From the NCBI GenBank assembly GCA_964640435.1, contig CAZXFJ010000002.1, positions 4,175-68,174 of the forward strand: a stretch of 64,000 nucleotides of DNA, in the 5' to 3' direction. Made by a program: the position numbers and the translations under genes. The notes below the pieces were generated by a model. The model ran no database searches, was not told the DNA's origin, and saw nothing but the letters and a program-made list of their open reading frames with translations. Positions 4,199 to 45,096 of this stretch are shown one piece after another. The stretch's first letter is position 1, and each line of letters begins with the position of its first letter. This DNA comes from an uncultured Gammaproteobacteria bacterium. GTDB lineage: Bacteria > Patescibacteriota > Microgenomatia > Levybacterales > GWA1-39-11.

Positions 4199-4744
4199 AT
4201 GAGCAAGACTTCAGACCTTCAAAAGATTGCAGTTGATATTGAAAAATGTGAAATTTGTAAGAAAAATAAACATGGGAAAGCTGTCGTTGGTGAGGGAAAT
4301 CCAGATGCTGATGTAATATTTATAGGGGAAGCACCTGGTAGAAACGAAGCCTTAACAGGAAGACCTTTTATAGGAAGATCTGGAAGGTTGCTACGCGAAG
4401 CGATAACAGGTTTGGGATTGAAAGAAGAAGATGTATATATAACAAGTCCTGTTAAGTATCTTCCGGATTATGTTACACCTACAGATGAAGATATAGCCCA
4501 TGGAATGACCCATCTTTCAAAGCAAATTGAGGTTATTGATCCAAAAGTTTTAGTTCTGCTTGGTAGAGTTGCGGTTCGTGGAGTGCTCGGCGACAAAGTT
4601 ATGATTAGCAAGCTTCACGGGGAGTTTGTAAATAAAAATGGACGTACATACTTCATTTCGTATCATCCAGCTGCAGCAATTCGTTTTCAAAAGTTCAGGA
4701 AAGTCTTCTTAGATGATTTTCAAAAAATTAAGGAAGTTTTATGA
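4199..4744 (+). CDS. uracil-DNA glycosylase, family 4 (SPO1 DNA-polymerase-related type)
   Basis: GEGNPDADVIFIGEAPGRNE, PFIGRSGRLL and YHPAAAIR match the family-4 UDG motifs. Only the N-terminal CxxC pair of the usual Fe-S cysteines is evident by eye. Confidence 0.85.
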   Translation: MSKTSDLQKIAVDIEKCEICKKNKHGKAVVGEGNPDADVIFIGEAPGRNEALTGRPFIGRSGRLLREAITGLGLKEEDVYITSPVKYLPDYVTPTDEDIAHGMTHLSKQIEVIDPKVLVLLGRVAVRGVLGDKVMISKLHGEFVNKNGRTYFISYHPAAAIRFQKFRKVFLDDFQKIKEVL

Positions 4745-30809: not shown

Positions 30810-31771
30810 AAATTGATATAGTAATTCCTAATTATAATGGAGCAGAGCTAATTAAAAAAAATCTTCCGGATCTAATAGATGCTGTCGAAAAATATGATAT
30901 TGGCAAGATAATTATAAGTGATGATTGTTCTCATGCAGAGGATTTTAAAAACCTTTCTGAATTTTTAAATATAGTTCGTCAAAAGACAAAAATAAAAATA
31001 GAGTTAATTGAAAATCTTAGAAATGTTGGTTTCTCTTCAAATGTAAATGTAGGTGTATCAAAGACCACAGCGGATTTTGTACTATTACTAAATACAGACG
31101 TATCTGCTAACGCTAAATTCCTGGATGCTGCATTAAAAGATCTTGAGAATAATGAAAACTTATTTGGCGTTGGACTTATGGACAAGAGTGAAGAGAGAGG
31201 TAAAGTTGTTTTAAGGGGAAGAGGTTTAGCAACATGGAAAAGAGGGTTTTTAGTTCATAGAAGGGGTGAGGTTGATTCGAAAGATACCTTCTGGATTAGC
31301 GGTGGAAGTTGTATATTTAGAAGAGAATTGTTCATAAGGCTTGGGGGATTTGACCAAAGCTATAACCCATTCTATTGGGAAGATATCGATTTGTCATACA
31401 GGGCGAGAAAATCAGGTTATGAGGTAATGTTTGAGCCCGAAAGCGAAGTAATTCATAGGCATGAAGAGGGAACTATTAAGAGACATTTTAAGTCATCCCA
31501 TATCAAAAAAATTGCATATCGAAATCAATTTGTTTTTGTTTGGAAAAATATAACAGACATAAAGCTTTTAATTTCGCACTTTTTCTGGCTTCCCGTCCAT
31601 TTGATAAAAGCGATTTTACGAATGGACCTTGCTTTCATAGCTGGATTTTTTGCTGCAATTAATAAAATTCCTGCTATAATCGGAAAACGAAGAAAGCAAA
31701 AAAAACTATACAAGAAAAAAGACGTAGAAATTATCCCAAATGAAATTATCAATACTAATTCCGGTATATAA
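30806..31771 (+). CDS. GT2 glycosyltransferase
   Basis: [35 protein letters not shown] and [11 protein letters not shown]. 321 aa. Confidence 0.75.
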
Positions 31772-32453
31772 CGAAGAAAAAACTATTAAAGCTGTATTAA
31801 AAAGTGTAGCAAAAGTAGAAATAAAAAAAACTCCTATAGAAATTGTAATTGTTGATGATGGATCATCAGATAAAACAGTTTCCTATATTAAAAAAATATT
31901 ACCAAAGCTTAAGAGAGCTAAATTGATAATTCACCCAAAGAATAAAGGAAAAGGTTCTGCCTTAAGGACGGGAATTAAAAAGGCTCGAGGAGACTATATT
32001 ATTATTCAAGATGCTGACTTAGAGTACGATCCAAAATATATTCCAGAGCTTTTTAAGAACATAAAAACACGAGAAGAGGTAATTTACGGCACTCGGTTAA
32101 ATAGAATGCCTCATTTTGATAATGAAGAAAGAAGAGCTCAATTTCTTTTACACTATATTGGAAACAGGTTTTTAAGTTTAGTAACAAGCATTTTGTATGG
32201 GCAATGGTTAACTGATATTGAGACATGTTATAAGCTCTTCCCCAAAAAAGCTGTGCTAAAGATTAAAATAAGAGCTAAGGGATTTGAATTTGAACCTGAA
32301 ATTACTGCTAAACTTATTAAACAGGGATATAGAATTAAAGAAGTACCAATAACTACTAAACCGCGTGGTTATGATGAAGGTAAAAAATTACAAACAGTAC
32401 GAGATGGCTATAAAGCTCTTTATTCTCTAATAAAGTACAGGTTTACAGACTAA
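31740..32453 (+). CDS. GT2 polyprenyl-phosphate sugar synthase (DPM1/GtrB-like)
   Basis: [32 protein letters not shown] and DADLEYDP. Overlaps the upstream gene by 32 nt. Confidence 0.8.
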
Positions 32454-32488: not shown

Positions 32489-34423
32489 ATGAATTTATTA
32501 AGTGTCGATTTTATTGCATCATTTTTTTATTTTTTACTAGCTATTTTTATCTCTTTTTATCTTCCTGGCTTTTTCTTTATCTCAAGGTTAAATTTACATA
32601 AATCTCAAGAAGTAATATTAAGCATAACTACCGGCATGGTTTTGTTTGCTTTTCAGGGATTTATATTTGGGTACTTAAACTTACGTTTATTAACTTATGT
32701 ATATCTTCTCCTATTCATTGGGCTATATATTTGGAAAAAAAGAGCTAAAAAAATTTCTCTACCTTCACTGGATATAAAAAATGCAGACTATTTATTATTA
32801 TTTATTTTGTTTGCCGGGGTTTTAACTCAAATTTTTTCAGTTTGGTTTAATGGGATAAAAATTTCGGAAGGACTTTATTTTTGTTGTGGATCAGTTCAGG
32901 ATAGTGTTCTTCATCTTGCAATCACAGATGAAATAGTTAAGAGATTTCCTCCAAATGAACCCGGCATGTATGGACAACTGCTTACAAATTATCATTATTG
33001 GGGGAGTTTGGTTATCGGAGAACTGATAAGAATATTTAAGTTACCTCTAATATCAACAAACTATCAGTTTATGACAATATTTGTCTCCTTGATGCTTGGT
33101 TTAAATGCTTTGGTTTTTGCAAGTGTACTCAAAATAGGTAAGGGATTCGGTAGATGGTTATTATTCTTTCTTTATTTTGGATCGGATTTCATATGGGGTA
33201 TTGTTGCAATTTTTAATAGAGATTCAATTTTCTTTATGCGTCCACTTGAAAGTGGAGCACAGTTTTTAGAGAATTTACCTCGAGCATTTGCTGTTGTTGT
33301 TTTCTTCGCAGCATTTTCATTATTTTTGATATGGATAAAGAAAAAGGATTTGTATGTTGGACTTATTATGTCATTTCTTTTAGCAAGTCTTTTAGTTTTT
33401 AAAGTAAATATTGGAGTATTTGCATTTTCTGGTTTGGCATTTTTGGGAATATACTACCTTTACAAAAGAGAGTACAAGATGTTGATACCACTGATCGTCG
33501 CTGTAATAATAGGTGCGATTATTTATTTGCCAACAAACTCATCGTCAGGAGGTCTTTATTATACGGGCTTTTGGAGATTTGAGAATTTCGTTGTACAGCC
33601 ATCGTTTAAATTGGATAGATTAGAATTAGCACGTTTAATTTATCTGCAACATGGAAATACACTTCGAGTGATTCAGTACGAGCTAATGTACATTTTCATC
33701 TTTATATTGGCTGTGTTTGGGACAAAGTTATTAGGATTTATTCAAACAAAAAAGTCTTTATCTCTTTTTCCAATCCAAATACATATAGTTTTTATACCAG
33801 CAATAATCATTAGTTTTATTGCTGGAGCATTTTTTTCGCAGACGTCAGGAGGTTCTAATAGTTTTAACTTTATAGTCTCCGTTTATATTCTTGGTTCTAT
33901 ATATACCGCTCTTGCATGTTTTTATTGGCTAAAAGGAAGAAATTTAATAAAAATATTACTAATAGTTTTGATTGTTGGATTAACACTCACGAGAAGTGTA
34001 GTTCAAACATATTCATATATAGACGATATTTTGAATAAACGTGGCTATTTAATAAAAAATGAAGAACTAGCCGCTATAAACTATTTTTCATCTTTACCTT
34101 CAGGTTTAGTGATTGTAGATCCTAATCTTGAAATTGATAAGAATAGCCCGTACTTAACTTTTTTAACAGGGCACAGGATGTATTTATCAGGAATTATTAA
34201 TGAGCTTGAGGCACACAATATAGACTATAAAGATAGGTTAACAATTAGAGATGAAATTTTTAAGTCAAAAAATCCTGACAAAGTTGCTGATTTAATTGCT
34301 GAGAATGATATAAGATATATATATCTTAAAAATAAAACAAAGCTTACAGCAACTGACTCGGCTAAGTTTTTGCCTGTAATTTTTCATAACGATATGATAA
34401 AAATTTTGGAGTTTAAAAAGTAA
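32489..34423 (+). CDS. large polytopic membrane protein, unassigned family (candidate GT-C-like), C-terminal soluble domain
   Basis: 644 aa with ~13 TM, followed by a ~170-aa hydrophilic C-terminal domain. No motif I can assign. Confidence 0.45.
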   Translation: MNLLSVDFIASFFYFLLAIFISFYLPGFFFISRLNLHKSQEVILSITTGMVLFAFQGFIFGYLNLRLLTYVYLLLFIGLYIWKKRAKKISLPSLDIKNADYLLLFILFAGVLTQIFSVWFNGIKISEGLYFCCGSVQDSVLHLAITDEIVKRFPPNEPGMYGQLLTNYHYWGSLVIGELIRIFKLPLISTNYQFMTIFVSLMLGLNALVFASVLKIGKGFGRWLLFFLYFGSDFIWGIVAIFNRDSIFFMRPLESGAQFLENLPRAFAVVVFFAAFSLFLIWIKKKDLYVGLIMSFLLASLLVFKVNIGVFAFSGLAFLGIYYLYKREYKMLIPLIVAVIIGAIIYLPTNSSSGGLYYTGFWRFENFVVQPSFKLDRLELARLIYLQHGNTLRVIQYELMYIFIFILAVFGTKLLGFIQTKKSLSLFPIQIHIVFIPAIIISFIAGAFFSQTSGGSNSFNFIVSVYILGSIYTALACFYWLKGRNLIKILLIVLIVGLTLTRSVVQTYSYIDDILNKRGYLIKNEELAAINYFSSLPSGLVIVDPNLEIDKNSPYLTFLTGHRMYLSGIINELEAHNIDYKDRLTIRDEIFKSKNPDKVADLIAENDIRYIYLKNKTKLTATDSAKFLPVIFHNDMIKILEFKK

Positions 34424-36066
34424 TGAAAAAATACTTAAAACCAAGTCTAATATTATTACTAATTTTCTTTCTAGGTTTATTTTTAAGGCTTTATCAATTA
34501 GGAACTACCCCTGCAGGATTTCATGCGGATGAAGCTGCATTTGGTTACAATGCATATTCGATTATCGAAACAGGTAAAGATGAATATGGGAAAACATTGC
34601 CATTAGTGCTTAAGTCATTTGGTGATTATAAAGGGGCACTATATGCATATTTATCAATTCCTTTTGTCTTGTTATTTGGTTTAAATCCATTTGGAGTCAG
34701 ATTTGCTTCTGCAATTATTTCTGCTCTAACAATAGTAGTTATCTACTTATTCGCCAAAAAGCTTTTTAATAACACAACCATCTCACTAGTTTCGGCATTT
34801 TTGTTTGCTATATCCCCCTGGGATATTATTATTTCAAGGGTAACCGGTGATGTAGAAGTAGGACTTTTTTTCACCCTCCTAATGTCCTATCTTCTTTTAT
34901 TTTTAAATGAAAAAAAGAGTAGTTTTTATTTTGTACTTGCTTTACTTTTTGGATTTCTTGCAACCATATCTTATGCCCCATATAGATTCTATGTAATTTT
35001 AATACCACTTATTTTCTTAGTGTTCTCAGCGGAGAAGATAAAAGGAAAAATAAATTTTAACAAAAAAGTATTATTTTTTATCATCTCAATAATTCTAGTT
35101 GGAATAATATATAGTTTTATTGCTCCTACAGAAAGACTTTCTCAGATTTCTATATTTACTAATCAAAATACTCAGTTAGTTTTAGATGAGCAGGTAAGGG
35201 AGGATGCAACCTCTCAAACATATGTGACTAGAATATTTCATAACAAAGTTGTTAATTACACTAGAACATTACTTGAGAATGCTGGACAATATTTTACTCT
35301 TGACTACCTTTTCCTAAATGGTGGTTTTCCATTAAGAGAAAGAATTCCTGCCAGTGGGCTTTTTTATATTTGGCAGTCTCCATTTTTGTTGTTTGGTTTG
35401 TATTTGATAATCCGAAAGAAAGAAAGAAGTGGATTTATTCTAATTGCGTGGTGGATTATTTTACTAATCCCTACAATTTTTACTTTTGATGAAATCCCAA
35501 ACGTACATAGAAATTTAATAATAAACCCTGCGATTCTTTTAATAATCTCGATAGGTATAGCGGATTTCCTAAAAATAAGAAAAGAAGTAATAGGAAAAAT
35601 TGCGTTAGGAGTTCTTATTGTTGTTGGATTATTTGAGTTTGCGTATTTCTTTCATCAATATTTCGCACACCAAAATGTTCATAGACCTTGGTATAGAGGA
35701 TTTGCATACGAAGAACTCGTTAGCGAGGTTAACAAAATATCGGGAGATTACAAAAAAGTTATCGTAACAAAAGGAAATCAAAGTCCATATATTTACTTCT
35801 TATTCTACTCAAAATACTCGCCTGTTGAATATCAGAAACAAGGTTCACCACGAGATCTTGATTATAAAGGCTTTGATAAATATACATTCGTTCCCTTGGG
35901 TTGTCCTCCTGTGGTAAAAGAAAAAGATATCGCCACAATTAAGGGAGATAAGGACACTTTGTATATTGATATGGGTACATGCGATTTGCCAGCCAATGCA
36001 AAAATAATTAAAACTATTAACTGGCAAGATGGTTCATCTGCATTTAAGATAATTGATTTTAGATAG
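34423..36066 (+). CDS. GT-C membrane glycosyltransferase, PMT_2/GT39-like, tandem paralog A
   Basis: GFHADEAAFGYNAYSI...GKDEYGKTLPLV..FGDYKGALYAYL aligns along its N-terminus with the ORFs at 38119 and 39774. Confidence 0.75.
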   Translation: MKKYLKPSLILLLIFFLGLFLRLYQLGTTPAGFHADEAAFGYNAYSIIETGKDEYGKTLPLVLKSFGDYKGALYAYLSIPFVLLFGLNPFGVRFASAIISALTIVVIYLFAKKLFNNTTISLVSAFLFAISPWDIIISRVTGDVEVGLFFTLLMSYLLLFLNEKKSSFYFVLALLFGFLATISYAPYRFYVILIPLIFLVFSAEKIKGKINFNKKVLFFIISIILVGIIYSFIAPTERLSQISIFTNQNTQLVLDEQVREDATSQTYVTRIFHNKVVNYTRTLLENAGQYFTLDYLFLNGGFPLRERIPASGLFYIWQSPFLLFGLYLIIRKKERSGFILIAWWIILLIPTIFTFDEIPNVHRNLIINPAILLIISIGIADFLKIRKEVIGKIALGVLIVVGLFEFAYFFHQYFAHQNVHRPWYRGFAYEELVSEVNKISGDYKKVIVTKGNQSPYIYFLFYSKYSPVEYQKQGSPRDLDYKGFDKYTFVPLGCPPVVKEKDIATIKGDKDTLYIDMGTCDLPANAKIIKTINWQDGSSAFKIIDFR

Positions 36067-36075
36067 ATCTGATGG

Positions 36076-36084
36076 TGTTATAAT
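36076..36084 (+). promoter_or_regulatory. extended -10 (TGtTATAAT) 6 nt upstream of the ATG at 36091; leaderless configuration
   Basis: TGTTATAAT at 36076-36084, then catcta, then ATG. Confidence 0.4.
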
Positions 36085-36090
36085 CATCTA

Positions 36091-38097
36091 ATGCGTTTTC
36101 GAAGTCTACTCTTTGGTGCGTTTTTTCTATTATTATCGGCAAGTAATGTTTTTGCTGATAACTCCTACATAACAATCGTAAATCCTGTAAGAATTTCAGA
36201 ATATACGAAAGATATAGTAGTCAACCTTAAGACCCAATACGAAGAATTAAATAAAAGAGAACTTCCAGCAACTTGGTTACTGACCTATGAAGTAATTACA
36301 AAAAAAGAAGCAGTTGAAGCAATAAAAAAATTTAATAAAAGACAAGAAGTAGGGGTATTTCTTGAAATAACTCCAGAAATATCTAAGGCTTCTGGGGTTT
36401 CTTACAATGAAACTAATGCTTGGCATAGGGCAACCTCAATTTTTTTATCAGGTTACACACAAAAAGATAGAAGAAAACTGATTGACACATTTTTTTCAGC
36501 ATTCAAAGATAAATTTGGATATTATCCAAAGTCGGTAGGATCCTGGTGGACAGATGCATATTCGCTTTCCTACATGAAAGAAAAATACAATATTACAGGA
36601 ACGCTTGGAGTGTCTGATCAGTATGATTTAGATGGGTATCAGGTTTGGGGTACATTTTGGAGTGTACCATATTACCCATCGAAGGTTAATGCAGGTATGC
36701 CAGCTCAAGCGGCTGAAGATAAAATAAATGTTGTCACCTTTAGATGGGCTGCAAGAGATCCTATTAATGGATACGCGAGCCCTTCTGATAAAGAAGCAAG
36801 TCTATATAGTACACAAGATTATTCTTCATTTGGTTTAGTTAATGATTATTACAATTATCTTATTGAGACATTTTCAATGCAAAACGAATTTAATAAATTT
36901 GGACAAATAACTCTTGGTCTTGAGGCAGATTATGCACCAGAAACATATACATCACAATTCGCAGAGTGGCTAGATATTGTTAAGAATAGAGAAGCTGAAG
37001 GGGAAAAAATAACAAACATGTCAGAGTTCTCTGATTGGTATATTAATGAGTTTAAATCTATTTCCCCACAGCAAATCATAGTATCGGATGATTATTTAGG
37101 GACAGGAAAGAAAGTGTATTGGATAAATAACTCCAGGTATAGAGTGGGTCTAGTCGATGACGGAAAAAATACAGCAATGATTGATTTTCGGACCTATCCT
37201 GAAAATTTTATTGAGCCATTTTATGTTGCACCAAACAAGCAATACAATTTATCTATAAACCTTCCATATGTAATTGATTCGCATATAAACAAAAAAAGTT
37301 CTTGGATTCTATCAAGCGAAAGTATTGAATCAGTTGAAAGCACTTTAGGAAATTTATCTGTGAAGTTAAAAAAAGGAAGCTTATTATTCTCTCCTAATTC
37401 AATTACAGTTCGTGATATTAAAATTCCTATTGCAATTGGCAAGAGCACTTATTTAAAAGTTGAAAAAAATGAAAATCATCAAATTATTTATCCAATCAAA
37501 AACGACCCGATCAGTCCAGATGGAATACTTTATAGCGAATACTCTTTAAGACTCCCTTTTACCATAGAAAGAAGAATAGACCCTATAAAAGTGTTTATTT
37601 ATCCGACTGCAATTATTTTAATCTGCATAATTTCAACCCTATTAATTATTAGATTTAAAAGAAGAGGAGTATTAATTTTGTTTTCATTAGCCATAATTTT
37701 AGTAATATTTTTCGTTGTTCGTGGACAAGCAAAATATTACATAAGTCAAACAGAAATGGATGCGTTATCCGTGCTGAGTGATTTGCCTCAGGGGAGAGTA
37801 CTCGTTTATGAGAAGGATTGTTTAAAATGTACATTTCAAACAATAAGGCCAGCAGCAGCCGCAGGAAGAAAGGGATACGTTGAAAAGTACGGTAAGCAAA
37901 AAATGTTACTTGATCTAAATTTCCAAATAGCTGCAAGTAGTAAGCTTGGCGCAGAGATGTTAAAAGAAAGAAAAGTTAAATATATTTACTTAAGTAAATA
38001 TGAAGACTATATTGAAACACTTCCGTATTTGCCTCAAGATTTAGGCTTAAAGCGAGTATATGAAAATGCTAACGCTCAAATTTGGGAAGTGTTGTAG
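36091..38097 (+). CDS. exported/membrane-anchored hypothetical protein (signal peptide, large extracytoplasmic domain, two C-proximal TM helices, short cytoplasmic tail domain)
   Basis: 668 aa. Signal-peptide-like N-terminus (MRFRSLLFGAFFLLLSASNVFA). TM helices near residues 510-560. Inserted between GT39-like paralogs. Confidence 0.5.
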   Translation: MRFRSLLFGAFFLLLSASNVFADNSYITIVNPVRISEYTKDIVVNLKTQYEELNKRELPATWLLTYEVITKKEAVEAIKKFNKRQEVGVFLEITPEISKASGVSYNETNAWHRATSIFLSGYTQKDRRKLIDTFFSAFKDKFGYYPKSVGSWWTDAYSLSYMKEKYNITGTLGVSDQYDLDGYQVWGTFWSVPYYPSKVNAGMPAQAAEDKINVVTFRWAARDPINGYASPSDKEASLYSTQDYSSFGLVNDYYNYLIETFSMQNEFNKFGQITLGLEADYAPETYTSQFAEWLDIVKNREAEGEKITNMSEFSDWYINEFKSISPQQIIVSDDYLGTGKKVYWINNSRYRVGLVDDGKNTAMIDFRTYPENFIEPFYVAPNKQYNLSINLPYVIDSHINKKSSWILSSESIESVESTLGNLSVKLKKGSLLFSPNSITVRDIKIPIAIGKSTYLKVEKNENHQIIYPIKNDPISPDGILYSEYSLRLPFTIERRIDPIKVFIYPTAIILICIISTLLIIRFKRRGVLILFSLAIILVIFFVVRGQAKYYISQTEMDALSVLSDLPQGRVLVYEKDCLKCTFQTIRPAAAAGRKGYVEKYGKQKMLLDLNFQIAASSKLGAEMLKERKVKYIYLSKYEDYIETLPYLPQDLGLKRVYENANAQIWEVL

Positions 38098-38104
38098 AAT
38101 AATA

Positions 38105-38110
38105 TATAAT
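38105..38110 (+). promoter_or_regulatory. -10 box TATAAT 8 nt upstream of the ATG at 38119; leaderless configuration
   Basis: TATAAT at 38105-38110, then cttaagaa, then ATG. Confidence 0.35.
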
Positions 38111-38118
38111 CTTAAGAA

Positions 38119-39771
38119 ATGAGCAAAAAGGTTTTATTCTCGTTACTATCTCTTATTGTCCTCCTTGCAGCATTTCTCCGTTTCTATAAAATAGGTACAA
38201 ATCCTTCTTCTCTCACCTGGGATGAGGTTGCTTGGGGTTACAATTCATACACTCTTGGGATTGATGGTAAAGATGAATTTGGAAGATTTCTTCCAATCAC
38301 ATATCTTGAATCATTCGGTGATTTTAAACCACCTGTTTATGCATATCTGGGAGTATTGCCAGTTAAGATATTTGGCTTAAACGAGTTTGCAACGAGATTT
38401 CCATCTGCTTTTTTTGGGACTTTGACAGTGTTACTAACATTCTTCTTAGTTAAGCGCATCTTTTGGCAGAAGAAAGAGGCAGAGGTTGTGGGTCTTTTAG
38501 CTGCATTTTTCCTAGCCATATCTCCATGGCATATTATGCTCTCGAGAGCTGCTTTTGAAGCAAATGTCTCCACGTTTTTTGTTGTTGCAGGAGTATTAAC
38601 ATTTCTCGCTGGGGTACAGGATAAAAAATGGTTTTTAATTCTTTCTGCGATATCTTTTACTCTTTCAATGTATACATTCAACACTGCAAGAATTGTAAGT
38701 CCGATTCTTGTTTTAATTCTTGCTTTCGCTTTTCGTGACAAGCTTCTTAAGATTAAAAAAGAAGTAATTATTGCAGCAATTGTTGGTTTAATAATAATGC
38801 TCCCTGCTATCCCATTTCTTCTTTCTCCGCAGGCAAGTCTTCGTTTTAAAGAAGTTAATATTTTTTCTGACCCTGAAGTTGTTAAGTTGGCAAATCAGCA
38901 AATTGAAAATGATAACAATGCTGTATGGTCAAAGATTCTCCACAATAGAAGAGTCCTTTATGGACTTGAGTATATAAAGCATTATTTTGATAACTTAAGC
39001 CCGAGCTTTCTATTTATAAAAGGAGATGGGAATCCAAAGTTTTCGACACAAAATGTTGGTCAAATGTATATCTTTGACATCGTATTTTTAGTTAGTGGTT
39101 TATTGCTATTAATAAGGAAACGTGATGGTAATTGGTGGCTTATACCAATATGGATATTAGTTGGAATAATTCCTGCGGCAACGGCACGAGAAACACCTCA
39201 TGCATTGAGAATTGAGACAACTTTACCCATGTTTCAAATCCTAACTGCTTATGGCGCATATTGGATAGGTAAATGGGTATTGGGTATTAGGAAAAAAATT
39301 GTTGGTGTTAAGTTAGGCCCAGCTGTAATTGGATTAGCAAGCCTATTGTTACTCTTTAATTTTGTTTACTTCTGGCATGATTTAATGGGTAATTACAATT
39401 ATCTTTATTCCTCGCAGTGGCAATATGGATACAAGGATTCAATCGATTATGTAAATGCGAACGCTGATAAGTATGATAGAGTTCAGATAACTCAGCAGTT
39501 GGGAAGACCGTACATTTACTACCTTTTCTACAATAAAACAAATCCTGAAGAATTCAGAAATACAGCAAAAATACATCGGGATTCATTTGGATTTGTAGAT
39601 ATTGAAGGATTTGGAAAATACACATTTCCTAAAGATTATCAGGTAGATAAGAAGGATGGGGAAAAGGTTTTGTATATTGCTACACCGTATCATCTCCCTG
39701 AAGGAGCAAAAATTTTAAAAACATTTAAATTGCTTAATGGAGAAGCTGTTTTTGTTGCATATACTATATAA
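38119..39771 (+). CDS. GT-C membrane glycosyltransferase, PMT_2/GT39-like, tandem paralog B
   Basis: LTWDEVAWGYNSYTL..GKDEFGRFLPI..FGDFKPPVYAYL. 550 aa. Confidence 0.75.
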   Translation: MSKKVLFSLLSLIVLLAAFLRFYKIGTNPSSLTWDEVAWGYNSYTLGIDGKDEFGRFLPITYLESFGDFKPPVYAYLGVLPVKIFGLNEFATRFPSAFFGTLTVLLTFFLVKRIFWQKKEAEVVGLLAAFFLAISPWHIMLSRAAFEANVSTFFVVAGVLTFLAGVQDKKWFLILSAISFTLSMYTFNTARIVSPILVLILAFAFRDKLLKIKKEVIIAAIVGLIIMLPAIPFLLSPQASLRFKEVNIFSDPEVVKLANQQIENDNNAVWSKILHNRRVLYGLEYIKHYFDNLSPSFLFIKGDGNPKFSTQNVGQMYIFDIVFLVSGLLLLIRKRDGNWWLIPIWILVGIIPAATARETPHALRIETTLPMFQILTAYGAYWIGKWVLGIRKKIVGVKLGPAVIGLASLLLLFNFVYFWHDLMGNYNYLYSSQWQYGYKDSIDYVNANADKYDRVQITQQLGRPYIYYLFYNKTNPEEFRNTAKIHRDSFGFVDIEGFGKYTFPKDYQVDKKDGEKVLYIATPYHLPEGAKILKTFKLLNGEAVFVAYTI

Positions 39772-39773
39772 AC

Positions 39774-41429
39774 ATGTTCAAAAATAAGAAAACACTTTGG
39801 ATAATTTTAGGACTAATTATTGCACTTGCTGCAATCTTGAGGTTGTGGCAGCTCGGTAATATCCCTCCATCTCCAGATTGGGATGAGGCGGCTTTAGGGT
39901 ATGATGCTTATTCGTTAATGACGACGGGTAAGGATGAATTCGGTAAGTTTCTACCTGTTGTATTGAGGTCTTTTGATGATTATAAGCCGGCGCTTTATGC
40001 ATATCTTGCAATACCATCTGTTGCTATTTTTGGCTTAAACACATTTGCCGTAAGGCTTCCCTCGGCTATTTCAGGAATCTTAATGGTTCTAGTTGTGTTT
40101 TATTTAATTCGTGAATTGTTTAAGGATTATAAATATAGGGATTATTTATCTCTTGCGGGAGCCTTTCTGTATGCAATTTCCCCCTGGTCAATTCAATTCT
40201 CGCGAGTCGCATTTGAGTCAAATGTGGGAGTTTTTCTAAATGCTCTAACTGTGTTGTTTTTTGTTAAAGGTTTAAAGCGCCCATGGATGTTAATGCTTTC
40301 TGCAGTCTTTGCTGCTCTTGGACCTTATGTATATCAAAGTGAAAAAGTCTTTACACCTCTTTTAGTATTAGTGCTTGTTTTAATTTATTGGAAGCAATTA
40401 TTTAAACTTCCAAAATTAAACATAATCATGGCCGTTATCGCTGGAATTATTGTAATTGCACCAATGGCATTTTATATATTGACGGATCAAGGAGCATTGC
40501 TTCGCGTAAAGGGTACGAGTATTTTTTCCTATCAAACAGAACTGCTTAAGGATAATACCATTAAGCTTGAGAGGGATAGAGAGGTAGGGGATAAATTAGG
40601 CTTAGTCCTTGATAATAGAAGATTAGTTTATCTTAAAACAGTTATAGGGGGTTATCTTTCTCATTTTGATCTGAATTGGTTATTTACGAGAGGTGATATA
40701 GCTCGTCACCATGCGCCTGGTATGGGTTTGCTTTACTTATTTGAACTTCCTTTGATTCTTGTCGGTATTTATAAACTTATTTTTGGAGAATTTAAATTAC
40801 AGTCGAAGTTAACAATATTTGGATGGTTTTTAATTGCTGCTATTCCTGCATCGGTAACTACAGGAGTTCCACATGCTGTTCGTACACTTAACTTTCTACC
40901 AACGTATCAAATAATTGGTGGGTTGGGTTTGGTGATAATACTAATTTGGTTATCTAGGATAAAAATGAACTTGTTCAAATATACTGCGCTTTTCATAATT
41001 GGTGTTTTTGTTTTATTCAATTTTGTTTACTATCTAAATCAATACTTTGTTCAATACAATTACTATGATTCTGAAGATTGGCAATATGGTTATGAGCAGG
41101 CTGCAAATTACACAATTGAGAATAGTCATAAGTATGACAAAATAATAGTTTCTGATAGGCAGCCTATGGATAAATCTTACATGTTTTTCTTGTTCTATTT
41201 AAAATATCCACCAGAAAAATATCAAGAGATTGGTAAGAATAGTTCTGGTAGCTTTGTATCGCATCATTCATTTGATAAATATGAGTTTAGGCCAATAGAC
41301 TGGAGTAAGGATTCATCAACTCCAAATGTTTTATATATCGGTACTCAGGATGAAATACCATCTAGAGTTTCTAAAAAAACTATAAATAACCTAGATGGTA
41401 CACCAGCAATTAGAATTGCTGGAACATGA
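39774..41429 (+). CDS. GT-C membrane glycosyltransferase, PMT_2/GT39-like, tandem paralog C
   Basis: PDWDEAALGYDAYSL..GKDEFGKFLPV..FDDYKPALYAYL. 551 aa. Confidence 0.75.
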   Translation: MFKNKKTLWIILGLIIALAAILRLWQLGNIPPSPDWDEAALGYDAYSLMTTGKDEFGKFLPVVLRSFDDYKPALYAYLAIPSVAIFGLNTFAVRLPSAISGILMVLVVFYLIRELFKDYKYRDYLSLAGAFLYAISPWSIQFSRVAFESNVGVFLNALTVLFFVKGLKRPWMLMLSAVFAALGPYVYQSEKVFTPLLVLVLVLIYWKQLFKLPKLNIIMAVIAGIIVIAPMAFYILTDQGALLRVKGTSIFSYQTELLKDNTIKLERDREVGDKLGLVLDNRRLVYLKTVIGGYLSHFDLNWLFTRGDIARHHAPGMGLLYLFELPLILVGIYKLIFGEFKLQSKLTIFGWFLIAAIPASVTTGVPHAVRTLNFLPTYQIIGGLGLVIILIWLSRIKMNLFKYTALFIIGVFVLFNFVYYLNQYFVQYNYYDSEDWQYGYEQAANYTIENSHKYDKIIVSDRQPMDKSYMFFLFYLKYPPEKYQEIGKNSSGSFVSHHSFDKYEFRPIDWSKDSSTPNVLYIGTQDEIPSRVSKKTINNLDGTPAIRIAGT

Positions 41430-41437
41430 GTTGAAAA

Positions 41438-42958
41438 ATGAAGAAAAAGAAGTTTAAGTTTTCGAATTTATTCACGCCAACACTTATAATACTTTACGTA
41501 TTAATTATCATAGGGTCCTATTTAAGACTCGAAGGTATTTTCGACAATTCTTTTGCCTTTACTTACGATGTGGGACGCGATCTAATAGCCGTTGGCGATA
41601 TAGTTACAGGACAAAAACTTTCTTTAATTGGTCCAACTTCAGGTTTACCAGGAGTATTTTATGGACCCTGGTGGTATTTAATGCTTGCTCCATTTTTTGT
41701 TTTATCTTCTGGAAATCCACAAGGAATTGCATTTTTTATGAGTTTACTGGGAATTTTATTAATCCCCTTATCATTTTATTTTGGTAAAAGACTTAATGGT
41801 GATTTTTTAGCTCTAAGCCTTGCAGGACTTGCAGCAGTTTCACCATCATTAATTTCCTTATCTTCTCAAATTTGGAGTCCTAATATCGCACCTGTCTTCG
41901 TTTTACTTTCATTTATTTTGCTCTACAAGATTTACTCCGGAAAAGATAATCCAATAATATATTTTTTACTAGGTTTTGTTACATTCTTAAATTCTGAAGC
42001 AGAAATAATATTTGGAGTTCTGTTTACTGGTGGAGTTGTTATATCAGTAATTTTAATTAAAAAATTAACATTAAAGCCAATTTCAGTTATCGCCTTTTTA
42101 CTAGGTACGGTTATTGTTATCTCACCAAAAATACTTTTTGAAGTTAAGCACAATTTCTTGATGACTCAATCATTTATAAAATATTTTCAGTCAGGTGCAG
42201 AGAAAGATATGGTGAGTGGAGGAGTTGTAGATATATTAATAAATCGATTAGACATATTTATAAATGAATTTTCATATGCTGTTGCATTTGGCAATAAGGT
42301 AGCTGGAATAATTTTACTAGTCGCCACAATTATCTCAATTATCTATTTCTATAAAAGAATATCTTCAAATGAAAAAAAATTGATAATTACCTCGACTATT
42401 ATTTTAATAGTATTTTTCGCAGGAACTCTATTTTTTGCGCACAATATTTGGCCTCATTATTTAGTTGGGCTTCCTATAATATATATATTGTTGGTTTCTA
42501 TTGCCTTAGCAAATTTGAAATTTAAACTTAAGTCTTATACGATTTCGTATATAGTTTTATTTCTTTTAATTGTTATTAATCTTAATCCTATTTCAGTTTA
42601 TCAATCATTTAGTACCAGCTGGGAAGGAAATGCGGCAGTTTATAGAAATCAGCTAAATGTAGTCGACAGTATTTATGCTCAAACTAAAAACAAAAGATTT
42701 AAATATGTTGTTTATACACCACCACTTCACGATTATACGTATAGATATCTTTTTGAATGGAGAGGAAAGAAGTATAACATGAAGCCATCTATCCAAGCAG
42801 ACACGGCATACTTTATTTTAGAGCCAGATCCAGAGGACCCATCAAGGCTTACTAGATGGCTACAAGAAAGAGCAGGAGATGGTAAAATTAAAAAAAGTAA
42901 GAAATACGATGGTGGAATCATTGTTCAAGAAAGATTTGTAGGAAATGAAAAAAACTAA
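41438..42958 (+). CDS. polytopic GT-C-like membrane protein (ArnT-like), pair member 1
   Basis: 506 aa. First-loop FTYDVGRDLIAVGDIVTGQKL...GPWWY mirrors the next ORF (FGYDQVDNAWAAKNIVADGRYPL...GPLYYY). Confidence 0.5.
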   Translation: MKKKKFKFSNLFTPTLIILYVLIIIGSYLRLEGIFDNSFAFTYDVGRDLIAVGDIVTGQKLSLIGPTSGLPGVFYGPWWYLMLAPFFVLSSGNPQGIAFFMSLLGILLIPLSFYFGKRLNGDFLALSLAGLAAVSPSLISLSSQIWSPNIAPVFVLLSFILLYKIYSGKDNPIIYFLLGFVTFLNSEAEIIFGVLFTGGVVISVILIKKLTLKPISVIAFLLGTVIVISPKILFEVKHNFLMTQSFIKYFQSGAEKDMVSGGVVDILINRLDIFINEFSYAVAFGNKVAGIILLVATIISIIYFYKRISSNEKKLIITSTIILIVFFAGTLFFAHNIWPHYLVGLPIIYILLVSIALANLKFKLKSYTISYIVLFLLIVINLNPISVYQSFSTSWEGNAAVYRNQLNVVDSIYAQTKNKRFKYVVYTPPLHDYTYRYLFEWRGKKYNMKPSIQADTAYFILEPDPEDPSRLTRWLQERAGDGKIKKSKKYDGGIIVQERFVGNEKN

Positions 42959-44307: not shown

Positions 44308-45096
44308 ATGAAAAAACAAACTGTTTCGGTTGTTTTAGCAACCTATAATGAAGAAAAAAACTTAGCGAAATGTTTGGAGACAGTAAAAGATATCGCTGAT
44401 GAAATTGTTATAGTAGATGGAACTTCTACAGATAGAACGCGTGAAATTGCAAAAGAATTTGGAGCAAGAGTAATTAAAACCACGAATAAGCCAAATTTCC
44501 ACATAAATAAGCAGATGGGGATCGAAGCCGCAAAATGCGATTGGATCCTTCAAATGGATGCTGACGAGCATGTTTCACCAGCTCTTGCAAAGGAAATAGA
44601 AGAAAAAATTAATGATCCGAAGCTTGATTTCGACGGATACTGGATGCCTAGGAAGAACTACTTTTTAGGTCGTTTTCTTATGAAGGGTGGTCAGTATCCT
44701 GATTATACGCTAAGACTTTATAAAAATGGTAAAGGAAGGCTACCTATGAAAGATGTTCATGAGCAGGCAGTTGTTGAAGGTAAGGTTGGTTATCTTAAAG
44801 AAGCATTATTGCATTATCCCTACGAAGACTTTGCTTTTTATCTTAAAAAGTGGGATAGATATAATACATTTATAGCGGGGCAGATAAGAGACGACCTGAA
44901 ACATAAAGGAAAATTAAGAAGAGGGGTTTTTGGTGCCGAATATCTTGTTTTCAGGCCAGCACATTGGCTTCTTACAACATATGGCCGACACAAGGGCTTT
45001 ATGGATTCTTGGCAAGGGTTTACTTTTTCACTTTTTTCAGCTCTTCGATTTCCGGTTTCTTATATCAAATATTTGAAAGGTGAAGACAAGAAATGA
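44308..45096 (+). CDS. GT2 glycosyltransferase (WaaE-like subgroup)
   Basis: VSVVLATYNEEKNL...ADEIVIVDGTSTDRT and MDADE motif. 262 aa. Confidence 0.8.
   Translation: MKKQTVSVVLATYNEEKNLAKCLETVKDIADEIVIVDGTSTDRTREIAKEFGARVIKTTNKPNFHINKQMGIEAAKCDWILQMDADEHVSPALAKEIEEKINDPKLDFDGYWMPRKNYFLGRFLMKGGQYPDYTLRLYKNGKGRLPMKDVHEQAVVEGKVGYLKEALLHYPYEDFAFYLKKWDRYNTFIAGQIRDDLKHKGKLRRGVFGAEYLVFRPAHWLLTTYGRHKGFMDSWQGFTFSLFSALRFPVSYIKYLKGEDKK

Follow-up and report, generated by a model that had tools for sequence, protein, structure and literature searches.

In a 64,000-nucleotide stretch of DNA (hereafter, the window) from the Levybacteria-like genome of an ultra-small bacterium (Microgenomates, CPR), a gene for a large exported protein, X, is inserted between the first two of three PMT_2-type GT-C glycosyltransferase genes, A, B and C. 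The question raised by this arrangement is whether X is an accessory subunit or an acceptor substrate of these enzymes, as suggested in the original prediction, or has a function of its own. The reading that we favor, with a probability of roughly 0.6, is that the window carries a multi-component transmembrane glycosylation cluster, with X as an added, GT-C-partnered glycan-processing module.

A glycan assembly cluster rich in GT-C genes

The genes in question (Table 1) belong to a single-strand cluster of at least 54 kb, of the cell-surface glycan assembly type, that includes at least 15 GT-C genes of four or five families, namely, PMT_2 (six or seven genes), YfhO (three), PTPS_related (four), and the gene U located upstream of A. 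The originally proposed total of five PMT_2/GT39-like genes is too low: six (11370, 34423, 38119, 39774, 42945 and 56945) exceed the Pfam threshold, and 41438 (gene D) is a distant seventh. Pfam and NCBIfam searches with the D protein yield no family match; this protein is similar to the product of E (blastp E 6e-6) and probably represents a diverged GT-C enzyme of the PMT_2-like type. The E protein itself lacks the large C-terminal domain, and its DE motif reads D-Q, with the Asp kept. The YfhO-family genes (28539, 12917 and 24050) share 31-34% identity over ~750-790 aa.

Table 1. Genes and the putative promoter element in the locus, in order of position in the window
Feature	Coordinates	Strand	Basis
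YfhO-family GT-C glycosyltransferase, upstream of the same gene run	28539..30809	+	Pfam YfhO, 105 bits
GT2 (GT-A fold), candidate polyprenyl-phosphate-sugar synthase, Dpm1/GtrB/AglJ/PpgS-like	31740..32453	+	Glycos_transf_2, 129 bits
U, GT-C-fold membrane glycosyltransferase (~14 TMs) with C-terminal globular domain (predicted)	32489..34423	+	AF2 model, Foldseek
A, PMT_2-type GT-C glycosyltransferase, 547 aa	34423..36066	+	PMT_2 43.9 bits, PMT 30 bits, multi-TM
Extended -10-like box TGtTATAAT (putative)	36076..36084	+	Consensus match in sequence
X, membrane-anchored exported protein, 668 aa	36091..38097	+	AF2 model, profile comparison
B, PMT_2-type GT-C glycosyltransferase, 550 aa	38119..39771	+	PMT_2 49.3 bits, PMT 44.9 bits
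C, PMT_2-type GT-C glycosyltransferase, 551 aa	39774..41429	+	PMT_2 44.2 bits
D, multi-TM protein (several TM peaks)	41438..42958	+	Distant relative of E
E, shorter PMT_2-type GT-C glycosyltransferase, 442 aa	42945..44273	+	PMT_2 36.3 bits (threshold 26.1)
GT2 enzyme, conserved downstream neighbor of PMT_2 arrays across Microgenomates	44308..45096	+	Pfam GT2

Sequence comparison identifies three paralogs of the GT2 gene 31740 within the window (9460, 18381 and 53413). Among solved structures, its product is closest to the Pyrococcus dolichol-P-mannose synthase (5mlz; residues 1-233 matched with E 1e-17), with GtrB and ArnC next, and the top NCBIfam models are AglJ, PgfS, dolichyl-P-hexose transferase and PpgS, with every score below the equivalog cut-off. 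This protein is likely to make the lipid-linked donor for the GT-C enzymes encoded downstream. Two Wzx-type flippases are encoded in the window (19104 and 52170), where neither a GtrA-type flippase nor an initiating phosphoglycosyltransferase was seen. The second GT2 enzyme, 44308, has GmaR (E 2e-18) and SunS as the best solved relatives, and the order in which two or three PMT_2 genes are followed by a 44308-like gene is repeated in ~30 loci.

Protein X is linked to GT-C proteins, primarily to U

The stop codon of U and the start codon of A share 1 nt (TAATG). The U protein gives no match in Pfam and NCBIfam searches, and all its 161 homologs are named 'hypothetical'. A Foldseek search started with the AF2 model of U (pLDDT 88, pTM 0.89) identifies DPY19 (E 9e-8), STT3, AglB, PglB and AftA, and the C-terminal domain resembles that of AglB (3vu0). 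The protein models as a GT-C-fold glycosyltransferase of a family that is represented in neither Pfam nor NCBIfam. Its C-terminal domain is also similar to that of X (hhalign probability 95%, E 2.8e-8).

Gene fusions point in the same direction. In Daviesbacteria, the X domain and a full-length U, in this order, are encoded in one ORF in 10 of 10 loci; additional fusions include more X+U proteins, one Wzx+X+U and one in which X is joined to a GT-C protein of the 47705 type (47705-like+X). Furthermore, four fusions of X with PMT_2 proteins were identified (P0481, P0480, P0470 and P0448). In P0470 and P0448, a D-like N-terminal part (E 5e-11 and 2e-6, respectively) is followed by the X domain, and the P0481 gene runs without interruption within a glycan cluster on a contig of 33 kb.

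Among the 58 well-flanked X loci, 47 lie in glycan clusters, whereas in the remaining 11, which lack glycosylation genes within 10 kb, the neighbors are housekeeping genes (class-I tRNA synthetase, glmS, L25). A PMT_2 gene immediately adjoins X in only 4 of the 58 loci, and U adjoins X or is fused to it in 11, so that no single GT-C partner is obligatory. The commonest synteny places X after an ArnC/PpgS-like GT2 gene (53413-like). The position between A and B, which had been considered meaningful, is lineage-specific, and the closest tie of X is to the upstream gene U rather than to A, B or C. Of the two roles originally proposed for X, the accessory one gains support from the fusions, which argue for a functional link with GT-C enzymes; the acceptor role does not (see below).

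Domain architecture and predicted activity of X

The predicted layout of X, with a signal peptide (aa 1-22, cleavage after MRFRSLLFGAFFLLLSASNVFA and before DN), a large ectodomain (~475 aa) and two TM helices, is confirmed, and a C-terminal domain can be added to it. The ectodomain consists of a seven-stranded beta/alpha barrel (aa ~25-320) and a beta-sandwich (aa ~328-481); the adjacent helices (~500-522 and ~525-545) form a TM hairpin, followed by the U-type, oligosaccharyltransferase (OST)-like domain (aa ~549-668) with an invariant CxxC.

A Foldseek search with the AF2 model of X (pLDDT 83.5, pTM 0.83) yields 3lm3, a DUF3863 protein, as the best match (E 2.8e-15, TM 0.67 on target), followed by CE4 and GH57 enzymes, the similarity to GH57 being at the fold level alone (TM ~0.3). 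In agreement with this result, 3lm3 is the sole solved relative detectable by sequence with the family profile (E 8e-10). The similarity is remote: X scores 19.7 bits against Pfam DUF3863 (gathering score 27), and none of the 23 family members scanned reaches the gathering score. The search for CE4 or GH folds that had been suggested for this protein therefore gave a positive answer, in that the ectodomain models as a barrel of the glycoside hydrolase/deacetylase superfamily. X does not correspond to any known housekeeping enzyme.

The X family comprises 967 clusters, mainly from Microgenomates. Across ~130-150 representatives with at most 50% mutual identity, the invariant residues are R34, E92, Q177, D181, W219, R222, D243, E278 and D365. 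From the two invariant Glu, the several invariant Asp and Arg, the invariant Trp and the lack of a conserved His, we infer a catalytic barrel with glycoside hydrolase or transglycosylase activity, which is more likely than the metal-dependent deacetylation of a CE4-type enzyme.

In a doubtful but serious alternative, X would have no catalytic role and would serve as an accessory subunit, either a pseudoenzyme or a lectin-like module, that recognizes and holds the acceptor polymer for the small GT-C enzymes (U and A-E), which have no large carbohydrate-binding domains. Such a protein could well score below the threshold of all curated enzyme families searched, as X does, and have a barrel devoid of the CE4 Asp-His-His triad. 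The OST-like domain common to X and U and the fusions with three GT-C families would fit generic acceptor handling, and the possibility that small GT-C enzymes depend on another protein to bind the acceptor has been raised explicitly as a speculation (PMC8035078). However, the pattern in ~150 sequences, with two Glu, three Asp and two Arg absolutely conserved and the Trp near-invariant, is seen more typically in active sites than on surfaces that bind ligands, and the nearest folds are all enzymes. Moreover, when a GT-C enzyme carries a fused binding module, as AftD and Emb do, this is usually a CBM with a beta-sandwich fold instead of a barrel.

Less probable still is an extracytoplasmic de-N-acylase, a functional analog of ArnD or PgaB that would expose the amino sugar of an intermediate, either lipid-linked or polymer-bound, ahead of the GT-C transfer or following it. 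The superfamily includes CE4, with several peptidoglycan and polysaccharide deacetylases ranking just behind 3lm3; the gene that precedes X in the commonest synteny is ArnC/PpgS-like; and the window contains an Arn-like row (53413-58273) of genes for an ArnC-like GT2, a CE4 enzyme, an ArnA-N-like formyltransferase and a PMT_2 protein. Nevertheless, no His is conserved at 90% or more anywhere in the X domain, which means that X lacks both the metal and the acid motifs of CE4, Polysacc_deac_1 is not matched in Pfam searches, and a canonical CE4 gene (55282) is already present in the cluster.

It is quite improbable that X is an acceptor glycoprotein O-glycosylated by the flanking PMT-like enzymes, and X is probably not a target of A, B or C. 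Apart from its export and its location between PMT_2 genes, the Ser+Thr content of X is elevated (13.8% compared to the window mean of 10.5%, ~2 SD above), and incidental glycosylation is possible for any exported protein. However, X lacks tracts rich in Ser/Thr/Pro (at most 37% within 30 aa) and has an enzyme-superfamily fold with enzyme-like conserved polar and aromatic residues; neither the rarity of PMT_2 adjacency nor the housekeeping surroundings in 11 of the 58 loci fit this role, and a domain fused to the transferases themselves is unexpected in a substrate. In addition, A, B and C fail the equivalog model of bacterial protein O-mannosyltransferases (16.7 bits against 800).

The paralogs A, B and C are ancient

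The four ORFs at 34423, 36091, 38119 and 39774 (547, 668, 550 and 551 aa, respectively) are present as predicted, all on the forward strand, and the assignment of A, B and C to PMT_2 holds, with 44-49 bits against the gathering score of 26.1 bits; A and B also pass the gathering score of PF02366 (PMT), whereas C falls below it. The TM profiles of these proteins are multi-TM. The motifs (A/W)DE(A/V)A(F/W/L)GY, GKDE(Y/F)G(K/R) and F(G/D)D(Y/F)K(G/P)xxYAYL are found in the three proteins as quoted. The alignment, which had been described for the first ~110 aa, extends over the full length, with similarity far beyond chance: A and C are 34% identical over 563 aa (E 1.5e-73), A and B 30% over 554 aa (E 1.7e-66), and B and C 36.5% over 551 aa (E 7.6e-98). 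The loop-1 Asp-Glu motif (D36-E37 in A) is kept in 81 of 84 A/B/C-type proteins, in which D52, R93, R143, E147, R242 and R364 are conserved as well.

Each of the three genes has its own ortholog clade. B is the most conserved, with more than 2,465 homologs at E<=1e-10, of which the 119 best non-self matches listed are 62-81% identical; the proteins of this type are named 'glycosyltransferase family 39 protein' by NCBI and 'ArnT-like' by JGI. Orthologs of C in the genomes L002-L004 are 52-55% identical, and these genomes carry an extra C-like copy downstream. A is the least conserved across Levybacteria (36-42% identity to the orthologs in L003 and L004). Given these separate clades and the recurrence of PMT_2 triplets across Microgenomates, including Woese-, Davies- and Amesbacteria, the duplication must be ancient, with each of the three PMT_2-type GT-C glycosyltransferases conserved in its own right; the triplication stands, but not as a recent event. 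The contention that the three are recent tandem duplicates undergoing neofunctionalization of acceptor specificity through diverged C-terminal domains, to which the tandem arrangement, equal length and 47-57% identity of residues 1-110 lend some color, is hardly tenable and was rejected, considering the overall identity of only 30-36%, the separate orthologs of each copy in other Levybacteria, the more than 100 orthologs at 62-81% identity for B alone, the positional triplets of other classes, and the better conservation of the C-terminal domain (35-38%) compared to the TM core (residues 111-415, 26-32%).

A -10-like box upstream of X

The putative extended -10 box, a perfect match to the consensus, ends 6 nt ahead of the X start codon, and no Shine-Dalgarno sequence was found for this gene; judging from the sequence, the box would allow a leaderless transcript to begin at 36091. 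The part of the original prediction that considered this promoter X's own is weaker, because a -10 box located 6-8 nt ahead of the start codon is not peculiar to X: a TAnnAT box starting at -14 to -10 is found in 17 of the 54 window genes, including B and C (4.6-fold positional enrichment; in B, TATAAT starts 14 nt before the ATG), but in only 5 of 80 X orthologs.

Proposed mechanism

Under the preferred reading, the Dpm1/GtrB-like GT2 enzymes (31740 and its paralogs) would make a polyprenyl-phosphate-sugar donor that is flipped across the membrane before the GT-C step. A, B and C would act at the outer face of the membrane, assuming the predicted topology, with each enzyme moving a single sugar from the polyprenyl-phosphate-sugar to a growing surface glycopolymer or a surface protein. 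This scheme would follow the logic of the multi-component transmembrane glycosylation systems of Gram-positive bacteria, but with many GT-C enzymes acting in series. X would be a free-standing version, anchored in the membrane, of an extracytoplasmic module, repeatedly coupled to GT-C proteins in Microgenomates, that consists of the barrel remotely related to DUF3863, the beta-sandwich and, after the TM hairpin, the U-type C-terminal domain, and might trim, cut or re-attach the glycan built by the GT-C enzymes.

Comparison with known systems

Multi-component transmembrane glycosylation systems combine a GT-A C55-P-sugar synthase, a flippase and a PMT_2 or YfhO GT-C enzyme (reviewed in PMC8035078), as exemplified in Gram-positive bacteria by CsbB/GtcA/YfhO, GtlA/GtlB, GacI/GacK/GacL, Csd and Gts (PMC8035078; Rismondo 2018, PMC5836110). 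The window resembles these systems in encoding GT-A/GT2 synthases (31740 and three paralogs), Wzx-type flippases, and PMT_2 and YfhO GT-C enzymes that carry an acidic motif in one of the outer loops. Pentofuranose three-component systems reportedly belong beside them. In contrast to the single GT-C gene per described system, at least 15 from four or five families are found here in one cluster; furthermore, there is no visible GtrA-type flippase in the window, and the ecto-module X of the GH/CE superfamily has no counterpart in the described systems. Synthesis of teichoic acids is not known in CPR bacteria.

ArnT (GT83) is the sole solved structure found by sequence for A, B and C (5ezm), with a marginal score (E 0.1), and the row at 53413-58273 parallels the Arn pathway. 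However, A, B and C score 19-23 bits against the ArnT equivalog cut-off of 567, and the general view is that CPR Microgenomates have neither an outer membrane nor lipid A. With the GT39 PMTs (eukaryotic PMT1/2 and actinobacterial Pmt), the common features are the PF02366 match of A and B and the loop-1 Asp-Glu motif; PMT1 and PMT2 form heterodimers, which the possibly cooperating paralogs in this locus bring to mind. Unlike bacterial Pmt, the three proteins fall far short of the equivalog model, C misses PF02366, and neither PMT_4TMC nor MIR domains were detected in them with Pfam. The U model matches the GT-C_A-type TM core of the STT3/PglB/AglB oligosaccharyltransferases and the DPY19 C-mannosyltransferase, and its C-terminal globular domain is similar to that of AglB, but the TM-scores are ~0.4-0.5, the sequence identity is ~10-14%, and there is no Pfam STT3 match.

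For X, the counterpart is 3lm3 (PF12979; BDI_3119 of Parabacteroides distasonis), deposited as 'putative glycoside hydrolase/deacetylase', with which it shares the motifs Q-x-x-x-D-G, P(Y/F)YPS, PAQ and W-x-x-R and a conserved Glu near strand 7; a literature search on the function of DUF3863 found nothing. Compared with DUF3863, X is found mainly in Microgenomates and has three additional elements, namely, the signal peptide, the TM hairpin and the C-terminal domain of the GT-C type. The 7-stranded barrel of X is of the same fold class as those of the CE4 polysaccharide deacetylases and GH57 alpha-glucan enzymes, without the conserved His-His-Asp triad of CE4. PgaB, PelA, BcsZ and PslG are periplasmic hydrolases or deacetylases that are encoded together with, and needed beside, a membrane glycosyltransferase; these systems employ GT2 synthases and nucleotide sugars rather than GT-C enzymes, and we know of none of the four fused to a GT-C protein. 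The concept, a polymer-processing ectoenzyme, is the same as the one proposed here for X.

The glycan gene cluster

From the GT2 gene at 9460 to the end of the window (GC content ~33%), the plus strand carries an unbroken run of at least 54.5 kb with ~44 glycan-related genes (see the table). At least 15 of these encode GT-C-type membrane glycosyltransferases, namely six or seven of the PMT_2 type, three YfhO, four PTPS_related and U, a GT-C-fold protein encoded upstream of A. The three PMT_2-type paralogs (A, B and C) and the 668-aa exported protein X, encoded between A and B, are found exactly where the original prediction placed them, all on the plus strand. The U-A-X-B-C order is also present in the related locus L004. 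The stop codon of U and the start codon of A share one base, which suggests that the two genes are translationally coupled.

Coordinates of the features discussed (positions in the window; single numbers are gene starts)
Feature	Position	Strand	Remarks
U	32489-34423	+	GT-C-fold protein
TAATG	34421-34425	+	U stop/A start overlap
A	34423-36066	+	ORF, 547 aa
TGtTATAAT	36076-36084	+	-10 box ahead of X
X	36091-38097	+	ORF, 668 aa
CxxC of X	37819-37830	+	C577, C580
B	38119-39771	+	ORF, 550 aa
Antisense ORF	38337-38741	-	134 aa, nested in B
C	39774-41429	+	ORF, 551 aa
D, E	41438, 42945	+	GT-C genes downstream of C
PMT_2-positive genes	11370, 34423, 38119, 39774, 42945, 56945	+	Pfam PMT_2 above gathering score
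YfhO GT-C genes	12917, 24050, 28539	+	three genes
PTPS_related GT-C genes	15288, 16856, 22401, 49455	+	four genes
Wzx-type flippases	19104, 52170	+	two genes
Small GT2 paralogs	9460, 18381, 31740, 53413	+	candidate donor synthases
GT2 downstream of PMT_2 array	44308-45096	+	GmaR/SunS-like
Gene 47705	47705-49513	+	602 aa, ~12 TMs
Arn-like module	53413-58273	+	in a row: 53413 ArnC/PpgS-like GT2, 54189 GT4, 55282 CE4 deacetylase, 56130 ArnA-N-like formyltransferase, 56945 PMT_2 GT-C
Further gene types (totals for the cluster)		+	about ten GT2, four GT4, nucleotide-sugar epimerases and reductases; one CE4 deacetylase, one formyltransferase, one methyltransferase
Paralog pair	10199, 46596	+	weak AftD/GT87 matches
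AlkZ-like DNA glycosylase	4741-5802		183 bits; just outside the glycan cluster
purK-like; adenylosuccinate lyase	5795; 7935		purine biosynthesis, around the AlkZ-like gene
Genes with TAnnAT box (examples)	642, 2298, 5795, 6966, 7935, 9460, 11370, 26387, 36091, 38119, 39774, 44308, 51127, 52170, 56945		box starts 10-14 nt ahead of ATG

A BLASTP comparison identifies a family of four small GT2 paralogs in the window. Among solved structures they are nearest to dolichol-phosphate-mannose synthase, GtrB and ArnC, and in NCBIfam they come closest to AglJ, PgfS, dolichyl-phosphate hexose transferase and PpgS, which makes all four candidate polyprenyl-phosphate-sugar synthases that could feed the GT-C transferases. 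A polyprenyl-phosphate-linked sugar donor for A, B and C would fit this context, the cluster having four Dpm1/GtrB/PpgS-like GT2 genes, one of which (31740) lies just upstream. The composition of the Arn-like module suggests a route to a lipid-linked donor through a formylated or deformylated amino sugar. The GT2 gene at 44308 is a conserved downstream neighbor of PMT_2 arrays across Microgenomates; among solved structures its product is closest to GmaR, which transfers O-GlcNAc to flagellin, and to SunS. Both act on proteins or peptides, and protein glycosylation by part of the cluster is thereby weakly hinted at.

The proteins of the window also occur in Logan run SRR14271361, and their closest relatives are labeled Candidatus Levybacteria or Levyibacteriota, within Microgenomates (CPR). 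Many public MAG records that contain X (L007, L009, L010, L013-L015 and others) are titled "uncultured Gammaproteobacteria bacterium"; the gene content and closest relatives of these records are those of Microgenomates, and the title is probably a placeholder or a mislabel.

The PMT_2-type paralogs

An all-against-all BLASTP search of the 54 window proteins aligns A with C (34% identity over 563 aa, E = 1.5e-73), A with B (30% over 554 aa, E = 1.7e-66) and B with C (36.5% over 551 aa, E = 7.6e-98). The similarity originally described for the first ~110 residues is therefore real, and the consensus motifs quoted for it are present, but it extends over the whole length of the proteins. Identity is 47-57% in residues 1-110, 26-32% in the membrane core and 35-38% in the C-terminal domain. 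The C-terminal domains, to which divergence and neofunctionalization had been attributed, are accordingly better conserved than the membrane core, and on these values they were rejected as the drivers of divergence among the three copies. The comparison was made domain by domain because proteins only 30-36% identical are saturated at synonymous sites.

All three proteins exceed the gathering threshold of PMT_2 (PF13231, 26.1 bits) with 43.9, 49.3 and 44.2 bits for A, B and C, respectively, a result on which the original prediction had made its family assignment depend; A (30.0 bits) and B (44.9 bits) also score above threshold with PF02366 (PMT), for which C is not listed. The PMT_2 threshold is passed as well by the products of 11370 (46.1 bits), 42945 (E, 36.3 bits) and 56945 (51.6 bits), so that the window contains six PMT_2-positive genes, plus 41438 (D) as a distant relative of 42945, and not the five counted originally. 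Narrower assignments are not supported. The bacterial Pmt equivalog NF058602 (cut-off 800 bits) gives 16.7 bits for B and no match for A and C, and Pfam detects neither a PMT_4TMC nor a MIR domain in A, B or C at E ≤ 0.01; the missed equivalog and the absence of PMT_4TMC argue against GT39 protein O-mannosyltransferases. The ArnT equivalog NF009784 (cut-off 567 bits) yields 22.8 bits for A and 18.7 bits for B, and the only PDB match of an A/B/C profile is the marginal one to ArnT 5ezm (E = 0.1 over 80 residues), which likewise speaks against ArnT (GT83).

Each of the three proteins shows at least eight hydropathy peaks and an Asp-Glu pair following TM1, in the predicted first outer loop, as expected of polytopic GT-C enzymes with an acidic motif in this loop, the topology itself being predicted. 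This Asp-Glu pair is retained in 81 of the 84 A/B/C-type proteins, together with D52, R93, R143, E147, R242 and R364 (B numbering), so that A, B and C all look catalytically competent. The antisense frame within B was treated as spurious because it is nested in a conserved gene.

At E ≤ 1e-10, B retrieves upward of 2,465 homologs; among the matches listed, the best 119 other than B itself are 62-81% identical, and the names they already carry are "glycosyltransferase family 39 protein" or "ArnT-like glycosyltransferase". Separate orthologs of A (~36-42% identity), B (53-61%) and C (52-55%) are present in the nearest genomes (L002-L005), and in a neighbor-joining tree of 87 proteins each falls into its own clade, which excludes a recent duplication. 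Tandem triplets are also found in Woese-, Davies- and Amesbacteria and sort by position in this tree, the deep nodes of which are short and unsupported, so that one-to-one orthology across classes is not established. The PMT_2 triplet is an old, ordinary and already annotated kind of gene that is abundant in Patescibacteria.

X belongs to the glycoside hydrolase/deacetylase superfamily by fold

The architecture originally proposed for X, a signal peptide followed by an extracytoplasmic domain of ~500 aa and two TMs, is borne out: cleavage is predicted after VFA22, the ectodomain comprises ~475 residues, and the TMs span residues ~500-522 and ~525-545. In addition, the TM hairpin is predicted to bring a 120-residue C-terminal domain back outside. 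This extracytoplasmic domain contains an invariant CxxC (C577 and C580) that may represent a disulfide or a metal site. The clustered database contains at least 477 homologs, every one annotated as hypothetical; the family is present in at least 177 species-representative genomes of Levy-, Davies-, Woese-, Ames- and Blackburnbacteria and, clustered at 50% identity, falls into 967 groups, of which 540 reach E ≤ 1e-30.

An AlphaFold2 model of X built from 23 sequences is confident (pLDDT 83.5, pTM 0.83) and shows a seven-stranded beta/alpha barrel (residues ~25-320, seven beta-alpha units) followed by a beta-sandwich. The best Foldseek match in the PDB is 3lm3 (E = 2.8e-15, TM-score 0.67 normalized to the target), the founder of DUF3863, deposited as "putative glycoside hydrolase/deacetylase"; it is followed by CE4 deacetylases (HP0310, PdaC and others) and GH57 branching enzymes, and the top 18 matches consist of 3lm3, CE4 enzymes, GH57 enzymes and the allantoinase PuuE. 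The likeness to GH57 is at the level of the fold only (E = 5.6e-6, TM-score 0.24-0.30). GH57 enzymes are defined by five conserved sequence regions with a Glu nucleophile and an Asp acid/base; the X family has invariant Glu and Asp residues of its own, which may or may not be their counterparts. The structural prediction that had been recommended for X, with CE4, GH or carbohydrate-binding folds in mind, thus points to the glycoside hydrolase/deacetylase superfamily of seven-stranded beta/alpha barrels.

Profile comparison agrees with the structural match, the X family profile aligning with 3lm3 over X residues 146-390 (E = 8.3e-10). With 19.7 bits, X misses the gathering threshold of Pfam DUF3863 (PF12979, 27 bits). 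None of the 23 family members scanned reaches this threshold; six match at E ≤ 0.01, the best E-value, 4e-4, being that of the 19.7-bit match of X itself, and some X homologs carry a precomputed PF12979 label. Given the profile and fold matches to 3lm3 below the family threshold, X is a remote, unannotated relative of DUF3863, a family without an assigned function or literature (a search retrieved no paper that mentions it).

Among ~130-150 representatives with at most 50% mutual identity, R34, G88, E92, Q177, D181, G187, W219, R222, D243, G276, E278 and D365 are invariant, and W62, W152, D176, W186 and D223 nearly so; judged by the secondary structure of the model, most of these residues sit where barrel strands end on their C-terminal side, or immediately beyond. 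No histidine is conserved at 90% or more in 23 close or ~150 diverse relatives, so that the metal triad of CE4 is absent, and X has no match to PF01522 (Polysacc_deac_1). A CE4 polysaccharide deacetylase was rejected on these grounds. Two invariant glutamates together with aspartates, arginines and tryptophans are what the cleft of a glycosidase or transglycosylase would be expected to show, and X may have such an activity.

Genomic neighborhoods, fusions and the U family

The open reading frames of 80 related loci were compared with the window proteins; 58 of these loci extend at least 3 kb on each side of X. A PMT_2 gene directly adjoins X in 4 of the 58 and lies within 6 kb in 25. The most common immediate neighbors are a 53413-like GT2 gene upstream (21 loci) and a 54189-like GT4 gene downstream (15 loci), and in most other Microgenomates X stands between the two. 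In the window, 53413 is followed directly by 54189 without an intervening X, and the A-X-B-C order is therefore confined to a small Levybacteria group (L002-L005, possibly L070).

In 11 of the 58 loci (L006, L008, L009, L011, L012, L014, L015, L032, L033, L035 and L063), all from one Levybacteria subgroup, X (~610-695 aa) occurs without any glycan genes. In the two such loci examined, L011 and L015, it immediately follows a gene for a class-I tRNA synthetase and has a ribosomal protein L25 gene nearby; in L011 it is followed by glmS (glucosamine-6-phosphate synthase), encoded on the other strand. Obligate linkage of X to PMT_2 genes is ruled out by these loci and by the rarity of direct adjacency.

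Gene fusions provide the stronger evidence on the partners of X. Ten Daviesbacteria-type loci encode proteins of ~1,140 aa in which residues ~20-410 correspond to the X barrel (37-43% identity, E about 1e-90) and residues ~500-1,140 to a full-length homolog of U (E = 1e-24 to 1e-49). An example of a natural X-U fusion is found at L078:9929-13399. Other fusions, identified in a search of family representatives, combine X with a Wzx flippase and U (P0417), with PMT_2-type GT-C proteins that are B-like (P0481, E = 1e-17), score 36 bits with Pfam PMT_2 (P0480) or are D-like (P0470 and P0448), and with a homolog of the 47705 protein (P0491, E = 2e-36). The P0481 gene is uninterrupted (1,067 aa) and lies within a glycan cluster on a 33-kb contig. 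The 47705 protein has no Pfam or NCBIfam match; since its homolog is fused ahead of the X domain in P0491, it is probably a further unclassified GT-C-like partner of the X module. The X barrel is thus a module that in Microgenomates has become joined, time and again, to GT-C glycosyltransferases, and these belong to three families or more.

U itself has no match in Pfam or NCBIfam, and its homologs (at least 160) are all annotated as hypothetical. Its model (pLDDT 88, pTM 0.89) matches only GT-C enzymes in the PDB at E ≤ 0.001 (DPY19, STT3, AglB, PglB and AftA), and the C-terminal domain matches the globular domain of AglB, which gives the model of U a GT-C fold with a transmembrane core and an outer C-terminal domain. 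The C-terminal domain of X is homologous to that of U (BLASTP E = 8e-5; hhalign probability 95%, E = 2.8e-8 over 116 columns); a relationship to those of A, B and C is rejected (hhalign probability 0.2%). By these comparisons X is partnered with GT-C enzymes as a class, U being the closest. In the window X is a separate membrane-anchored protein; its gene has six GT-C genes around it, U and A on one side and B, C, D and E on the other, and lies downstream of the donor-synthase candidate 31740.

Start regions

The original prediction gave X its own extended -10 leaderless promoter. The box is there, ending 6 nt ahead of the ATG with no Shine-Dalgarno sequence, but it is not special to X: a TAnnAT box starts 10-14 nt ahead of the ATG in 17 of the 54 window genes, B and C included. 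The motif occurs 3.6 times per position at this offset vs 0.78 further upstream, a 4.6-fold enrichment, and Shine-Dalgarno-like motifs are scarce across the window. Only 5 of 80 X orthologs have the box at the same offset. These counts suggest that leaderless-type starts of transcription and translation are widespread in this genome and that the cluster contains many internal promoters; they reveal nothing specific to X. A generic sigma-70 scan finds sites no more frequently than in shuffled sequence, and the literature searched for glycosyltransferases and for leaderless mRNAs of CPR bacteria gave nothing specific.

A possible mechanism

The gene identities, folds, fusions, conservation and neighborhoods described here can be brought together in a tentative scheme. 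Dpm1-like GT2 enzymes would load polyprenyl phosphate with sugars, the lipid-linked sugars would be flipped to the outer face, and GT-C enzymes including A, B and C would there add them singly to a surface polymer or protein. X would act on the GT-C product or acceptor on the same face, most likely as a carboxylate-dependent glycan hydrolase or transglycosylase, with its membrane hairpin and U-type C-terminal domain keeping it close to the transferases. A more novel reading, to which we give a probability of roughly one in three, is that the X barrel may be a new, unnamed carbohydrate-active family that works only with GT-C partners, either as a separate protein or fused to U-, PMT_2- or 47705-type GT-C proteins or Wzx, in outer-face "build-and-process" machines that assemble a CPR-specific surface polymer; U would then represent a further new family, of the GT-C type, within such machines.

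As the chief alternative, X would be a subunit without catalytic activity that binds the acceptor, and a separate subunit of this kind has been anticipated for small GT-C enzymes (PMC8035078). That X is instead the substrate of A, B and C, as the original prediction proposed in making it a candidate acceptor, is a weak explanation and was rejected, because X adjoins PMT_2 genes at so few loci, lacks a Ser/Thr/Pro-rich tract, shows an enzyme-like pattern of invariant residues and has its domain fused to the transferases themselves.

Testable roles now exist for two families without a Pfam or NCBIfam model, X (~970 clusters at 50% identity) and U (at least 160 homologs). CPR genomes are typically about 1 Mb in size (about 1.08-1.13 Mb in two complete relatives), and a surface-glycan cluster of at least 54 kb is a large investment for such a genome. 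CPR organisms, whose surface biology is almost unstudied, are presumed to live in attachment to other cells; the dominance of extracytoplasmic GT-C enzymes in the cluster points to an elaborate envelope polymer. The fusions offer a clear, testable hypothesis on CPR envelope glycan assembly. Because the X barrel recurs in fusions with several GT-C families, they suggest, in the Rosetta-stone manner, how small GT-C enzymes might handle an acceptor polymer, a question raised in the teichoic-acid glycosylation field (PMC8035078).

Comparison with known transmembrane glycosylation systems

Multi-component transmembrane glycosylation systems consist of a co-encoded GT-A polyprenyl-phosphate-sugar synthase, flippase and GT-C transferase (PMC8035078). 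A further mark of such systems is that single sugars are transferred outside the cytoplasm to a defined wall polymer. The window similarly co-encodes synthase candidates (9460, 18381, 31740 and 53413), Wzx flippases (19104 and 52170) and GT-C genes; no GtrA-type flippase is found among the window proteins scanned. The cluster is of an ordinary kind, though unusually large and GT-C-rich. What is new is X, as a remote relative of DUF3863, and U, with its GT-C fold, two families without curated models, and their recurrent physical coupling. Unlike the known systems, the locus adds an ecto-module of the GH/CE superfamily, X, and thus amounts to a variant of transmembrane glycosylation systems extended by such a module.
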